Source: Escherichia phage EC.P1
Length of the DNA: 64,000 nt
Sequence record: PQ657772.1
Strand: one strand, 5' to 3'
A model generated the notes under the pieces. It saw only the letters and a program-made list of their open reading frames with translations, had not been told where the DNA came from and did no database searches. Below, in pieces: positions 32,657 to 40,791 of the stretch. Within the stretch, counting starts at the first letter, position 1. The number at the start of each line of letters is the position of its first letter. Made by a program: the position numbers and the translations under genes.

Positions 32657-33002
32657 AATTTACCTCGTATGTGTTATAATTCCACGTTTTAACACTATCC
32701 ATTTGTATATCCTGAACTTCATGGAAATATTTAAGTACCTTCTGGTATTCCATTAGTTCGTACACATCTTCAGTATTGACAGTGCTCTCCTGAAACAATT
32801 CCTCTTCTGATAAAGTACTATAATCAGGGATTTTTATTTCAGAATATATCTCATTCATATATGAATCATTTTGGTAAATCTGTAGATAAAACTGATTATA
32901 TTCAGGGATATAGGTTACGAAATGGTTCTTGATGAATTCATATCTTGAAGCAAAGCAATCATTGCCATCCGTCATGTACTGAATTGTTGTTGTATTATGC
33001 AT
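32640..33002 (-). CDS. family A paralog
   Basis: motif EEELFQESTV. Confidence 0.6.
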   Translation of the reverse strand: MHNTTTIQYMTDGNDCFASRYEFIKNHFVTYIPEYNQFYLQIYQNDSYMNEIYSEIKIPDYSTLSEEELFQESTVNTEDVYELMEYQKVLKYFHEVQDIQMDSVKTWNYNTYEVNYVRND

Positions 33003-33477
33003 TCAAATAATCCACACATTGATGGTATACAACTAAATCTATAAAGAATCGTTGTTTGTATTTGTAATGATGAAGTAGTGCACCATAAAGTAATATAGCA
33101 TTAAGTACTTTTGCATCATGAATACAAGACCCTTGGAAGTACATTTCTTCTGTCATGAAAACTAACTCACTATAAGGGATAAACACTGAATCTCTAAATG
33201 TATCAATGTTAATCTTCAAATCAGACCCTTGGCAATATGAAATATATTCAGCTCTGTAGTGAAAGTCATTATCGTCAAAGAACTCAGCATATACTTGATT
33301 GCCCTTATTATTTTTAAAGGCAAGTCTTCCTTTGGTTGAACTGAATTGGTCATATTGGAACATTCCACCAAAAGGCATTCCACCGAAAGGTTGGGGACTT
33401 CTGAACTCCTTTGCAATGCGATGAATGTTAGATGCAAATTCTAAAACACCATCGTAATCATATTCTGTTGTAATCAT
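32995..33477 (-). CDS. family A paralog
   Basis: motif EEMYFQGSCI. Confidence 0.6.
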   Translation of the reverse strand: MITTEYDYDGVLEFASNIHRIAKEFRSPQPFGGMPFGGMFQYDQFSSTKGRLAFKNNKGNQVYAEFFDDNDFHYRAEYISYCQGSDLKINIDTFRDSVFIPYSELVFMTEEMYFQGSCIHDAKVLNAILLYGALLHHYKYKQRFFIDLVVYHQCVDYLNA

Positions 33478-33953
33478 AGACCATTTTTCTCCATATACTC
33501 AATGATTTCATCTACGAAGTTTAAATCCATATAGAATCTATCATTTGCGTCATTGAGTTCATCTTTAAGTACTGTAAAAATTGTAGAACTAAACACGATT
33601 CTCTCATTGTACAAAGTACTGTACTGGAAGAATTCTTCTTCTGATCTAACATTAAATGTGTCATATTCATCATCAACATCAGATCTAGGATGATAGTACT
33701 TAAAACTATCAGATGTATGGAAACAATATGAGATAAAATCCCCTGATGGTGCATCGTCAAGTACACGAATACCACAGAAATTCTCATCTGTAGTATGCAA
33801 CAAATTGCTATTCATTGACAAATAATTTTTGTACGCATAAAGTGTGCTTCGTGGGAGAATTATATTCTCTTTAACTGTTACAAGGAACTTATGAAGTTTA
33901 ATGATATTTTGTGCGATTTTTTGTGCATTGCTAAATGATAGGTCTTTGGACAT
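33474..33953 (-). CDS. family A paralog
   Basis: motif EEEFFQYSTL. Confidence 0.6.
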   Translation of the reverse strand: MSKDLSFSNAQKIAQNIIKLHKFLVTVKENIILPRSTLYAYKNYLSMNSNLLHTTDENFCGIRVLDDAPSGDFISYCFHTSDSFKYYHPRSDVDDEYDTFNVRSEEEFFQYSTLYNERIVFSSTIFTVLKDELNDANDRFYMDLNFVDEIIEYMEKNGL

Positions 33954-34012
33954 TGTGATATAACCCTTTACAATTAATATAAAGAGATTATATCACAAAG
34001 ATTTGGAGGGTG

Positions 34013-34603
34013 TCAAGAGTTCTCACGAAGTTCTACCATTTCTTTCCATACTAAATGGTAATCTTCTAAGTCCAGATAGAAGTCTTCATTTAAGTGCTCA
34101 TATAAGTACTTGTACATGAATAGTACACCTAAATTGTATTCAGTATTAAGTAATGATTGTTGGAAGTAGTTTTCTTCATTTAGTTCTATATCCATGAACT
34201 CAAATCTACCTAGACCTTTTAATGTACGTATCTCAACATGTGAAGTATCTGTTTTACTGAAGCACATGAATCCACCTCTAAATTCGGGATCATATTCACA
34301 TTCATACTGTCCACTGTTATTATAGAAATCTCTATTACCATCCTTATCTTTTGGCTTAACAACTGATACGTGAAGGTCGTCATCTTTGTACATTGTACGT
34401 TCTGGCGTTTTCACACATTTTAACTTATTTTCTTTAATGTACTTGATAATATCAATTATATCTTGTGCAGTACTGATTGCTGCCTCGAACGTATCCAACT
34501 TAAGATGATTGTATAGAGTTCCCTCGTTCTTTATTTTATCTAACATACTAACCTCATAGTTCATACATCTTTGATTTGAATTGCATTGGTCCACCAACTT
34601 CAC
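34013..34603 (-). CDS. family A paralog
   Basis: motif EENYFQQSLL. Confidence 0.6.
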   Translation of the reverse strand: MKLVDQCNSNQRCMNYEVSMLDKIKNEGTLYNHLKLDTFEAAISTAQDIIDIIKYIKENKLKCVKTPERTMYKDDDLHVSVVKPKDKDGNRDFYNNSGQYECEYDPEFRGGFMCFSKTDTSHVEIRTLKGLGRFEFMDIELNEENYFQQSLLNTEYNLGVLFMYKYLYEHLNEDFYLDLEDYHLVWKEMVELRENS

Positions 34604-34892
34604 ATGGATAATTTTCCATAATACGATTCAAAAGTATCTGGTACTGTTGTAGTACTTCAATTTCCAAATGTATACTACTATCCAGTACTAATGACTCCTG
34701 GAACAATTCACCTGTATCTAAACATGAAAAATCATTTATAGTTAGCATTGGCTTATCATTGGTACGCAATGTAAATGATTCCTCATTTCGGATTAATGTA
34801 CAGAATTCATTATGTTTTCTGTTATAATTCATTTTAACCAATAATAACTTAGTGTGAGTTGCGTACATTATTTTTACTAATTCAGTCTTCAT
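34554..34892 (-). CDS. family A paralog
   Basis: motif TGELFQESLV. Confidence 0.6.
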   Translation of the reverse strand: MKTELVKIMYATHTKLLLVKMNYNRKHNEFCTLIRNEESFTLRTNDKPMLTINDFSCLDTGELFQESLVLDSSIHLEIEVLQQYQILLNRIMENYPCEVGGPMQFKSKMYEL

Positions 34893-38922: not shown

Positions 38923-39388
38923 TATCTTCCCCTACAGTATTCTCTACGTATTCATAATCGAAATAGAAACTATCAGAACCAATACTTTTAAAGTACCACA
39001 TAATTACAATAACATCTAATTCTTCTTCATTGTACACAGTACTGTTCTGGAAGTAATATTCTTCACTATCCCACGGACCTTCTAGTACTGAATACGGAAT
39101 GATTGTGTCATCATCATCGTAATCAGGGCTGTAAATTATAATATCTTCATCTCTACAATAACTAATGTACTGATTGTACATATGATATTCACAGTCATCA
39201 GTATCACCCGTATCAGTGTGTAGTACTAACGTTTCTGCACATATCTCTGACTCATCATAATCGTCGCGGTCTTTTACAAAAAATTCAGTATCAGATGTTT
39301 TATACACACCAGGCACTGAACCTTCTTGTACCATAATCATGTACTCATGAATCTTCTTTGCTTCTTTCAATGCACTTTCTAATGACAT
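38900..39388 (-). CDS. family A paralog (MSLxSAL subfamily)
   Basis: motif EEYYFQNSTV; N-terminus MSLESALKEAK. Confidence 0.65.
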   Translation of the reverse strand: MSLESALKEAKKIHEYMIMVQEGSVPGVYKTSDTEFFVKDRDDYDESEICAETLVLHTDTGDTDDCEYHMYNQYISYCRDEDIIIYSPDYDDDDTIIPYSVLEGPWDSEEYYFQNSTVYNEEELDVIVIMWYFKSIGSDSFYFDYEYVENTVGEDNVITKCS

Positions 39389-39390
39389 TA

Positions 39391-39831
39391 CTAATCCCCT
39401 GTACTTAAATATTCACATGCTCCCCAGTCAAGGAAGAAGGGTTCAAAATTCAATTCCTTAAAGTACCACAAAACAACCAAGGAATCAAGCATTTCTTGGT
39501 TAAAAATAAGACTCTGTTGGAAGTAATACTCTTCAGTACCCCACGGCCCATCAAGTACCCCGAAGTCAACAGGTGTATTTGATGTGTCAAAAGTAATCTT
39601 AGTACCTGGAATATATACAAAAAAACTAGTATATTGACTACATGAAGAGTACTGTATAGTATTGTCTTTATCATGGCCCATAAGTAAAATATCATCAGAG
39701 TATGTCTTTATACCTGATAGATAATACTCATTACCAAATGCACTTACTTTATCACCATAGAAACCACTTTTTATGTTATCGTGGAAGTGATGTATTTTGT
39801 GTGCCAGTTTAAGTGCACTTGCTAAACTCAT
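39391..39831 (-). CDS. family A paralog (MSLxSAL subfamily)
   Basis: motif EEYYFQQSLI; AAGAGGA RBS 5 nt upstream of ATG. Confidence 0.65.
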   Translation of the reverse strand: MSLASALKLAHKIHHFHDNIKSGFYGDKVSAFGNEYYLSGIKTYSDDILLMGHDKDNTIQYSSCSQYTSFFVYIPGTKITFDTSNTPVDFGVLDGPWGTEEYYFQQSLIFNQEMLDSLVVLWYFKELNFEPFFLDWGACEYLSTGD

Positions 39832-40298
39832 ATATCCTCTTTAATAACTCGTAGTAGATCCAAGTCCAGATAGAAGCTAGGACAATCGGTATTATTAAAG
39901 TACCACAGAATGACAAGCTTGTCAAGCACATATTCCTCGTAGATAGTATTCTGCTGGAAGTAGAACTCTTCACTTCCCCAGTCATTATCCAGTACTGAAT
40001 ACGGAAGATGTTTCTCTGCTGCACCAGTTATAATGTCAGTATATTGTATTAAAATATCAGCATCACGACAGAAGTACATGTAATTATCTTCCAGATTAAC
40101 ATCACACCCAGTGAGTGTTGTTTCAGAAGAATCTAAGTTTTCTTCGTACATGTGAATGTACTCACTACTGTCATCGTATATCATTCGACAATAAGCTTTA
40201 CCTTCCTTGAATAGATACCCATTGAGTCGATTGAGTACTATTTCCTTTTTACATAAATCAATTAACTTAGCAATTTCTAATGCTCTTTCTAAACTCAT
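39828..40298 (-). CDS. family A paralog (MSLxSAL subfamily)
   Basis: motif EEFYFQQNTI. Confidence 0.65.
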   Translation of the reverse strand: MSLERALEIAKLIDLCKKEIVLNRLNGYLFKEGKAYCRMIYDDSSEYIHMYEENLDSSETTLTGCDVNLEDNYMYFCRDADILIQYTDIITGAAEKHLPYSVLDNDWGSEEFYFQQNTIYEEYVLDKLVILWYFNNTDCPSFYLDLDLLRVIKEDI

Positions 40299-40299
40299 T

Positions 40300-40791
40300 T
40301 TAACCCCTGTTAATACCGTTATCTACAGTTTTCTTTACGTATTTGTAATCGAAATAGAAGTTCCCAGAACCAATACTTTTAAAGTACCACATAATTATAA
40401 TAACATCAAGTACTTCATTATCGTATACAGTACTTTGTTGGAAGTAATACTCTTCACTATCCCACGGACCTTCCAGTACTTCACTCGGAATTATAATGTC
40501 ATCGGAATCGCTGTCAGTACTGTAGATGGTATTTGTATCATTAATATAGACCATGTACTCATTATGCATATTAATGTAGCATTCATAATCATTAGGGTCG
40601 GTATCTAGTATGCACGTTTCTGTATCCAGTACGCACGTTTCTGTATCTGAGCAGTCATTATAAAGGAGGTTATCCGGTACATAATATTGAGTACTTGTGT
40701 CTTTGAAAACACCGTAAACTGAACCTTCTTTTGCCATATTCATGTACTCATGAATCTTCTTTGCTTTTTCCAATGAACTCTGTAATGTCAT
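40300..40791 (-). CDS. family A paralog (MSLxSAL subfamily)
   Basis: motif EEYYFQQSTV. Confidence 0.65.
   Translation of the reverse strand: MTLQSSLEKAKKIHEYMNMAKEGSVYGVFKDTSTQYYVPDNLLYNDCSDTETCVLDTETCILDTDPNDYECYINMHNEYMVYINDTNTIYSTDSDSDDIIIPSEVLEGPWDSEEYYFQQSTVYDNEVLDVIIIMWYFKSIGSGNFYFDYKYVKKTVDNGINRG

Follow-up and report, generated by a model that had tools for sequence, protein, structure and literature searches.

The 64,000-nt window analysed here, a stretch of the Escherichia phage EC.P1 genome (PQ657772.1), encodes on its minus strand a long array of small proteins that share a short motif built around an invariant Phe-Gln pair. This motif is probably the signature core helix of a small α/β domain defining a very large protein family of RaK2/121Q-type jumbo phages, rather than a proteolytic processing site. 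A preliminary description of the region at 32995-40791 had likened the motif to the cleavage sites of potyviral NIa proteases of the tobacco etch virus (TEV) type, while judging a conserved fold-core motif at least as likely; it is the latter reading that the evidence favours.

The family was delineated with a profile that was seeded with five neighbouring open reading frames (ORFs) and iterated as a hidden Markov model (HMM) over all minus-strand ORFs of the window until convergence. This procedure returned 42 clear members (E<1e-3), all on the minus strand between 22870 and 52793, with E-values from 1e-10 to 1e-31. Together with about six further ORFs of the array that carry a degenerate motif (EENEFQNN, DEQCFQLS, ESFFFQLS, EAARFQYE, EAYIFQRS and SIEFFQYE), these account for the roughly 50 proteins that had been estimated beforehand. 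Members come in a long form of ~145-210 aa, equipped with an additional N-terminal helical part, and a short form of ~100-135 aa. Identity between paralogs in the window is just ~15-25%, and the protein sequence flanking the motif is alignable across ~90 residues. Most members are acidic, with a median isoelectric point of 4.84 compared to 5.76 for the remaining ORFs of the window.

In full, the motif reads [S/T]-E-E-x-[Y/L/F]-F-Q-x-S-[L/T]-[V/I/L]-[Y/H/W]-D. With positions numbered as in a protease substrate (Gln being P1) and residues counted over the 42 members of the window, P2 Phe and P1 Gln are invariant (42/42 each), P4′ is Val, Ile or Leu in 40/42 and P2′ is Ser in 34/42. Glu occupies P6 in 32 and P5 in 29 members, Tyr, His, Trp or Phe P5′ in 29, Ser or Thr P7 in 26, and Asp P6′ in 20, while P3′ is Leu in 24 and Thr in 15. 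Among the more variable positions are P3 (Tyr 16, Leu 15, Phe 4), P8 (Leu 13, Asp 7, Met 7) and P1′ (Glu 10, Tyr 9, Gln 6, Asn 4, Leu 4, Met 3, Gly 2). At its start, S/T-E-E, the motif looks like a helix N-cap box, with acidic residues at the N-terminus of the helix.

AlphaFold models of one long and one short member place the motif in such a helix. For the long form (ORF 37282-37728, motif EEGYFQGS; alignment of 28 paralogs), the model reached a mean predicted local distance difference test (pLDDT) score of 79.5 and a predicted template modelling (pTM) score of 0.71; it consists of an N-terminal helix, a disordered stretch at residues 32-58, three strands and helices at 85-92, 94-100, 106-120 and 131-147. 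Motif residues E94-G100 make up helix 94-100, and the 10-residue blocks covering them have mean pLDDT values of 95 and 93. The short-form model (ORF 41157-41516; alignment of 42 sequences; mean pLDDT 71.4) shows a meander of five strands that precedes two helices, 66-75 (TAELFQESLV) and 84-100; confidence along the chain peaks in block 61-70, where the motif helix starts (mean pLDDT 94). In the long and the short form alike, the motif is the most confident helix of the domain, adjoining the sheet rather than forming a linker, and it follows the β-meander and precedes one or two more helices. The Phe and the flanking hydrophobic positions are predicted to pack onto the sheet. The preliminary description had named burial of the Phe-Gln residues in a β-strand as evidence against cleavage; the models assign them to an ordered element of the domain, but to a confident helix instead of a strand.

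We propose that the N-capped motif helix forms the core of a small sheet-plus-helices domain that was amplified to dozens of copies. The hydrophobic P3 residue, the P2 Phe and positions P3′, P4′ and P5′ would pack the helix on the sheet, and the invariant Gln and the acidic cap would provide a buried or capping polar contact, or else a common contact surface. In this arrangement, the fold would be maintained by the constant helix, and targets would differ from paralog to paralog through the sheet, loops and N-terminal helices, which are very variable. In view of the high copy number, the divergence outside one constant element, the lack of detection in virions, the acidity and the accessory-genome position, our working inference is that the proteins act within the infected cell in host takeover or counter-defence, as a diversified set of small binding modules. 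The likeness to a TEV site would then be a side effect of the family motif in the few copies with Tyr at –2 and Gly at +1.

Several points weigh against this explanation. Burial of the Phe and Gln is deduced from the predicted helix assignment, its confidence and the pattern of hydrophobic conservation; both models derive from shallow alignments (28 and 42 paralogs), that of the short form being of moderate quality only. A Gln that never varies, together with an almost invariant acidic pair, would be expected of a functional contact sooner than of plain packing, and 'fold core' may hence be an incomplete description. No partner of the family and no fusion to a known domain was found, and the role as binder or in host takeover is an analogy only. 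As to promoter-like sites, a promoter and terminator scan of the array gave no enrichment over shuffled sequences.

The family extends well beyond the window. Over its entire length, region 32995-40791 is 99.0% identical to Escherichia phage Ecwhy_1, a member of the genus Asteriusvirus within the 121Q/PBECO4 group of ~350-kb jumbo myoviruses of E. coli, and it matches 34 more records of this group; all genes underlying these matches are annotated as 'hypothetical protein'. When the Ecwhy_1 genome was reassembled from eight pieces and searched with the same family profiles, 57 members were found, corresponding to about a tenth of its ~590 genes, with Phe-Gln present in 57/57. Of these, 41 belong to the array seen here, 11 to a second array at 12785-33408 of the record, and five are scattered (at 189927, 203147, 328284, 345433 and 351402). 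When a 92-position core profile was run exhaustively with HMMER against 1.84 billion representative proteins, no more than 120 reached E<=1e-3; with one exception, these are 65-241 aa long, and every genuine one contains Phe-Gln. The exception in length, a 773-aa protein, was rejected as a repeat artefact. A further match, whose sequence reads as tetratricopeptide repeat (TPR)-like, was likewise set aside as non-family, having only the motif string in common with the family; its three repeats each contain AEGYFQQSLVI, which suggests that the motif string suits a helix.

Matches that carried a name, as well as those from tblastn, belonged to Asteriusvirus phages or to ~350-kb contigs that are labelled 'E. 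coli' but are such phages, and word-indexed homolog searches recovered relatives from the same phage group only. With a consensus query, tblastn additionally gave weak matches in RaK2-like Klebsiella phages and one marginal, partial match in an Erwinia phage. A Foldseek search of predicted viral structures returned a run of proteins with consecutive accessions from Klebsiella phage RaK2 (genus Alcyoneusvirus). Indeed, family profiles detected at least 25 tandem members with the same motif within 40 kb of the RaK2 record (232722-272856), including CTEEGYFQGSLI and ISEEGYFQGSTI; EEGYFQGS occurs in two of the RaK2 members. The family was therefore present before the genera of coliphages and Klebsiella phages diverged.

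Within the coliphage lineage, the copies appear to be individually maintained. For 36 of the 42 window members, collinear reciprocal-best orthologs were identified in phage 121Q (42-97% identity), with dN/dS values between 0.07 and 0.50 per gene and 0.26 when pooled. Collinear one-to-one orthology and low dN/dS argue that the copies are old and not redundant. In phage phAPEC6, gp442c is a family member (profile E=9.1e-15) and, judged from its equal length of 163 aa, probably the ortholog of ORF 40300-40791. The phAPEC6 virion proteome (62 proteins) contains none between gp347 and gp549, the range holding gp442c.

Databases hold the family only in fragments. Scans of ten members gave nothing at or above the gathering score in Pfam and zero matches in NCBIfam and PADLOC, and the family profile had no match to Protein Data Bank (PDB) sequences at E<=10. 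Window members do match seven PHROGs (phrog_12674, 9317, 15629, 13866, 28549, 33806 and 30978) with E-values of 1e-34 to 1e-96, all of them labelled 'unknown function'; individual subfamilies are thus already catalogued, but the family is split there into many unannotated groups. Neither the PHROG tables nor the jumbo-phage papers searched mention one superfamily or an invariant Phe-Gln helix, and no account of the family or its expression was found in the literature. The object is therefore an uncharacterised, lineage-specific multigene family, catalogued in PHROGs and of a kind known from large viruses.

Lineage-specific multigene expansions are exemplified by the multigene families of African swine fever virus and the ankyrin/PRANC families of poxviruses. 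Like these, the phage family comprises dozens of same-strand tandem paralogs of a small domain, amounting to ~10% of genes, is located in the accessory genome and is retained across related viruses. Unlike them, it is made up of old (15-25% identity), stably orthologous copies, whereas the large-virus expansions turn over rapidly, and there is no relation in sequence or fold between the two. Among phages, a ~35-copy zinc-ribbon expansion has been described in Bacillus phage G (PMC7824862), to which the present family is likewise unrelated in sequence and fold. In the present case, one unannotated family with an invariant Phe-Gln helix takes up roughly a tenth of the genes of these 350-kb phages. 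It is common to coliphage (Asteriusvirus) and Klebsiella (RaK2-like) jumbo phages, its copies are retained gene for gene under purifying selection, and databases scatter it over many 'hypothetical protein' groups. Treating these groups as one family gives common access to much of the 'dark' gene content of phages under development for therapy, and testing can start from a profile, one motif and two mutable residues.

Since one polar residue never varies, the helix may also serve as a contact surface for a common partner. In such a scenario, which we regard as rather unlikely, the invariant helix would dock all ~57 paralogs on one hub, for example the phage's ClpP/ClpA/ClpS-type machinery or a different complex of phage or host, with the variable remainder selecting host targets; if true, this would represent a phage counterpart of the F-box/PRANC logic in large eukaryotic viruses. 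Consistent with docking, the invariant Gln and the near-invariant Glu-Glu and Ser persist across paralogs of ~15-25% identity and in two genera, the phage encodes two ClpP-like proteins, an HslV-like protein, a ClpA-like ATPase and a ClpS-like adaptor, and the phAPEC6 gene range around a family member yielded no virion protein. However, no direct evidence of a partner exists, and the conserved hydrophobic positions point to packing within the domain. Co-occurrence of the family with Clp genes is uninformative, as both are lineage traits, and the motif resembles no Clp, clamp or SSB docking motif known to us.

As opposed to a core helix, the motif could be a cleavage site, cut after the Gln in ~50 proteins by a 3C/NIa (TEV-type) Cys/Ser protease of the chymotrypsin fold, yet we consider this very improbable. 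The two peptides that had given rise to the idea, EEMYFQGS (ORF 32995-33477) and EEGYFQGS (ORF 37282-37728), are both present on the minus strand, at 33127-33150 and 37426-37449, and match E-x-x-Y-x-Q followed by a small residue exactly; as a description of the family, this pattern fails, with the strict form E..Y.Q[GS] found in 2/42 window members and 2/57 Ecwhy_1 members. All minus-strand ORFs of the window together contain two such strings, both in family members, where composition predicts ~0.3. The shorter E-x-x-Y-x-Q occurs in 15/42, the Gln is invariant and the P6 Glu common, EEGYFQGS recurs in RaK2, and TEV protease accepts many residues at P1′, all of which would be compatible with cleavage. 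NIa proteases, though, read P6, P3, P1 and P1′, whereas in the family conservation peaks at P2 and at P2′-P5′, which NIa does not read, and P3 and P1′ are among the more variable positions. P3 is Tyr in just 16 members and P1′ mostly Glu, Tyr or Gln, bearing out the earlier caveat about a missing Tyr and bulky or acidic residues after the Gln; Gly or Ser stands at P1′ in only two members, compared to ~4.5 expected from family composition, so that small residues are not enriched. Other variants within 32995-40791 are EENYFQQS, EEYYFQNS (twice), EEYYFQQS (twice), EEFYFQQN, EDAYFQYS and EEEFFQYS. Chymotrypsin-fold proteases of this class bind their substrates as extended strands, but both models predict a confident helix inside the domain, with the disordered stretch located elsewhere (residues 32-58 of the long form).

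Nor was a candidate enzyme found. Contrary to what the cleavage proposal implied, no chymotrypsin-like Cys/Ser protease turned up for these phages in motif, Pfam, annotation and tblastn searches, which very remote chymotrypsin-fold homologs would escape. None of the 239 non-nested ORFs of at least 150 aa in Ecwhy_1 contains GxCG. GxSG with an upstream His is present in 16 ORFs, mostly annotated as tail, baseplate, portal, RecA-like, RCC1-like or ClpA, and the five of these 16 that were scanned, mostly hypotheticals, had no PA-clan Pfam match. A 202-aa ORF with GDSG (Ecwhy_1 146417-147025) was discarded as a protease candidate, as it matched no protease family or PDB entry. A tblastn search of 50,697 phage records (E<=10) with TEV NIa-Pro returned nothing relevant. 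E. coli is not known to cleave such sites either: in laboratory practice, ENLYFQ[G/S] linkers survive expression in this host until TEV protease is added. We know of no phage that uses a 3C/NIa-type protease, which is why a shared processing site would have been remarkable; with consensus, conservation, predicted helix and protease search all opposing it, the claim can be dropped. In a survey of 224 jumbo phages, the peptidases reported were S77, XkdF, ClpP, ClpS, SprT-like, ArdC-like, MoxR-vWA and NlpC/P60, and the words trypsin and chymotrypsin are used nowhere (PMC7824862).

The proteases that these phages do encode are of other classes. The relative fEgEco12 is annotated with a 'protease', a 'head maturation protease', a Clp ATPase, a T4-type prohead protease and a 'peptidase', the first two of which are ClpP-like according to Pfam. 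The 'peptidase' g432 (182-871 of its piece) was rejected, as its only Pfam match is to an Rv2179c-like 3′-5′ exoribonuclease (E=2.7e-9); its annotation looks wrong. Judged by matching gene neighbours, the 'metallopeptidase' Ecwhy1_92 is the probable g432 counterpart. Ecwhy_1 possesses a Clp-type kit consisting of a ClpP-like protein, assigned via its fEgEco12 counterpart (228679-229374), a stretch 'similar to protease' (225139-225744), an HslV-like protein (224196-224789), a ClpA-like ATPase (139559-141847) and a ClpS-like adaptor (56616-57161). The HslV-like assignment, made for an annotated 'protease', comes from PHROGs, and at 168200-171013 a MoxR-type ATPase adjoins a vWA-DUF2201 metallopeptidase.

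The prohead protease of Ecwhy_1 belongs to Peptidase_S77 (Pfam E=8e-21), raising a different processing scenario, in which the family would be capsid-internal proteins cut by this T4 gp21-type enzyme at an L-[S/T]-E preceding the motif. T4 gp21-type proteases cut after the Glu of [L/I]-x-E, and in T4 internal proteins the processing site lies in an N-terminal targeting peptide. Some copies do have a suitable sequence, with Leu at P8 in 13/42, Ser or Thr at P7 in 26/42 and Glu at P6 in 32/42. Nonetheless, P8 is not conserved, Asp and Met accounting for seven members each, and the putative site sits inside the folded domain, at the start of a confident helix, unlike the targeting-peptide sites of the T4 proteins. 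Furthermore, 0/62 phAPEC6 virion proteins fall within gp348-gp548, and the lack of detection of the family in virions argues against prohead-protease processing, leaving this scenario with hardly any probability.

That the motif is a recombination or regulatory element at the DNA level, translating to EExxFQxS by chance, can practically be dismissed: the flanking protein sequence aligns for ~90 residues, and synonymous codons vary freely at the conserved positions (Phe, 25 TTT and 17 TTC; Gln, 26 CAG and 16 CAA; Ser, 15 AGT, 11 TCA and 5 AGC), indicating selection on the protein, with Ser derived from two codon families (AGY and TCN) unconnected by a single mutation, which rules out a DNA-level repeat. 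The one feature in favour of such an element is a perfect 8-bp inverted repeat at 37423-37442, GTACTTCC ag GGAAGTAC, formed by the Y-F-Q-G-S-T codons of the EEGYFQGS member. As other copies lack it, it is probably due to chance.

The individual members, all encoded on the minus strand, are given below in order of coordinates, with length, motif and HMM E-value in brackets. The low-coordinate end of the array is formed by ORF 22870-23370 (166 aa, AGELFQLS at 23035-23058, E=1.3e-15), followed by a possible divergent member at 23357-23770 (137 aa, SIEFFQYE), whose core-HMM E-value of 0.45 is not significant. Clear members reside at 24185-24703 (172 aa, EESLFQYS, 2.6e-13), 25126-25710 (194 aa, EERLFQES, 1.8e-17), 26299-26850 (183 aa, EEQHFQLS, 9.5e-11) and 26862-27443 (193 aa, EEQYFQLS, 9.7e-24). 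ORF 27430-27936 (168 aa, EENEFQNN) is a divergent member with a core-HMM E-value of 1.4e-4, and its Ecwhy_1 counterpart passes E<1e-3. On either side of another possible divergent member at 28926-29510 (194 aa, EAYIFQRS; core HMM 0.086 only) are ORFs 28361-28939 (192 aa, DEELFQMS, 1.4e-22) and 30161-30745 (194 aa, DEVQFQLS, 8.1e-21), after which come 30672-31238 (188 aa, ESVMFQHM, 7.5e-21), 31761-32255 (164 aa, EESYFQNS, 3.2e-26) and two short forms, 32243-32656 (137 aa, PDELFQYS, 3.6e-15) and 32640-33002 (120 aa, EEELFQES, 1.1e-20).

The first of the two strict TEV-consensus members, 32995-33477 (160 aa, EEMYFQGS, 5.8e-24), matches phrog_12674. It is succeeded by 33474-33953 (159 aa, EEEFFQYS, 4.4e-25), 34013-34603 (196 aa, EENYFQQS, 2.8e-22; phrog_28549), the short forms 34554-34892 (112 aa, TGELFQES, 6.9e-15) and 34882-35241 (119 aa, EDELFQES, 1.1e-20; phrog_13866), and 35840-36436 (198 aa, EENIFQNS, 4e-16). 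Between the last two, a 200-aa minus-strand ORF at 35247-35849 has DEDAMFTND in place of the motif, that is, F-T and not F-Q; its profile match is not significant (E=73), but loss of the invariant Gln from a former member could explain it. ORF 36749-37285 (178 aa, DEQCFQLS; core HMM 0.014) is a probable divergent member, and proteins with (D/E)EQCFQLSCT, as in this ORF, match a family profile at 4e-10 to 4.5e-4. The second strict-consensus member, 37282-37728 (148 aa, EEGYFQGS, 3.4e-20), which served for the long-form model, is followed by 37725-38168 (147 aa, EDAYFQYS, 2.1e-20), the short form 38168-38482 (104 aa, ETFLFQES, 5.1e-13), 38479-38922 (147 aa, EEYYFQNS, 1.3e-26; phrog_9317), 38900-39388 (162 aa, EEYYFQNS, 1.4e-31), 39391-39831 (146 aa, EEYYFQQS, 4.2e-26), 39828-40298 (156 aa, EEFYFQQN, 9.8e-21) and 40300-40791 (163 aa, EEYYFQQS, 2e-31).

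Next in the array are the short forms 40801-41160 (119 aa, DGELFQAA, 2.9e-22) and 41157-41516 (119 aa, TAELFQES, 2.6e-23), the latter used for the short-form model, as well as 41513-41974 (153 aa, DAALFQES, 7.5e-23) and 42676-43302 (208 aa, EEMLFQYK, 8.6e-15). ORF 43241-43585 (114 aa, EAARFQYE; core HMM 0.023 only) is possibly and ORF 44310-44918 (202 aa, ESFFFQLS; core HMM 1.1e-3) probably a divergent member, with a clear one between them at 43582-44220 (212 aa, EAAYFQQS, 1.3e-19). There follow 44915-45490 (191 aa, AEEYFQYS, 4.4e-18; phrog_30978), 45565-46062 (165 aa, EEWWFQQN, 5.5e-21), 46369-46938 (189 aa, EEAFFQES, 2.4e-20), the short forms 46910-47260 (116 aa, EEEFFQMQ, 4.3e-13) and 47257-47568 (103 aa, EEEFFQMQ, 1e-13), 47558-48064 (168 aa, SAELFQKS, 1.3e-25) and 48141-48701 (186 aa, EAEVFQTS, 1.1e-20). 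The remaining five are all short forms: 49691-50002 (103 aa, EEELFQYS, 1.2e-16), 50917-51267 (116 aa, EEEEFQYL, 3.3e-15), 51545-51919 (124 aa, EEEYFQYS, 4.2e-21), 52099-52440 (113 aa, EEEYFQES, 5.9e-21) and 52455-52793 (112 aa, EEEYFQES, 1.3e-22), the last being transcriptionally the first of the array. Just beyond the opposite end, a 282-aa minus-strand ORF at 19313-20161 contains the motif-like VPDELMFQLML; it has no significant profile match and may be a very divergent or fused relative of the family. A second 282-aa ORF, at 21338-22186, was considered as its paralog, but this pairing was rejected.

Long ORFs of the window lie nearly all on the minus strand and are tightly packed, frequently overlapping by a few bases, and the family array is part of a long single-strand block of small genes without an assigned role. 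Only one place within the array shows clear punctuation: a hairpin resembling a terminator, T-run included (45577-45556, minus strand), and, immediately after it, a TTGACA-17-TACAAT site that is close to consensus and has a TG upstream (45546-45518). Hairpin and promoter-like site (45518-45577) occupy the gap between ORFs 45565-46062 and 44915-45490.

Downstream of the array, the minus-strand ORFs 6409-7341, 8164-9306 and 2270-3028 comprise an RNA-repair pair and, nearby, a calcineurin-like phosphoesterase. The pair consists of Pnkp, the polynucleotide kinase-phosphatase (PF25109, E=1.5e-43), and Rnl1, an RNA ligase 1 of the T4 type (PF09511/PF20819). In T4, polynucleotide kinase-phosphatase and RNA ligase 1 counter a host anticodon nuclease. 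No tRNA genes were found in the 64-kb window.

A second, unrelated tandem family is formed by ~30 consecutive minus-strand ORFs of 66-90 aa at 53036-59193, with further copies at 36384-36575 and 36553-36771. Its members, all annotated as hypothetical, have a common C-terminal motif, 'LGTNYQE..V..yi..L', and roughly correspond to genes 320-341 of phage 121Q.

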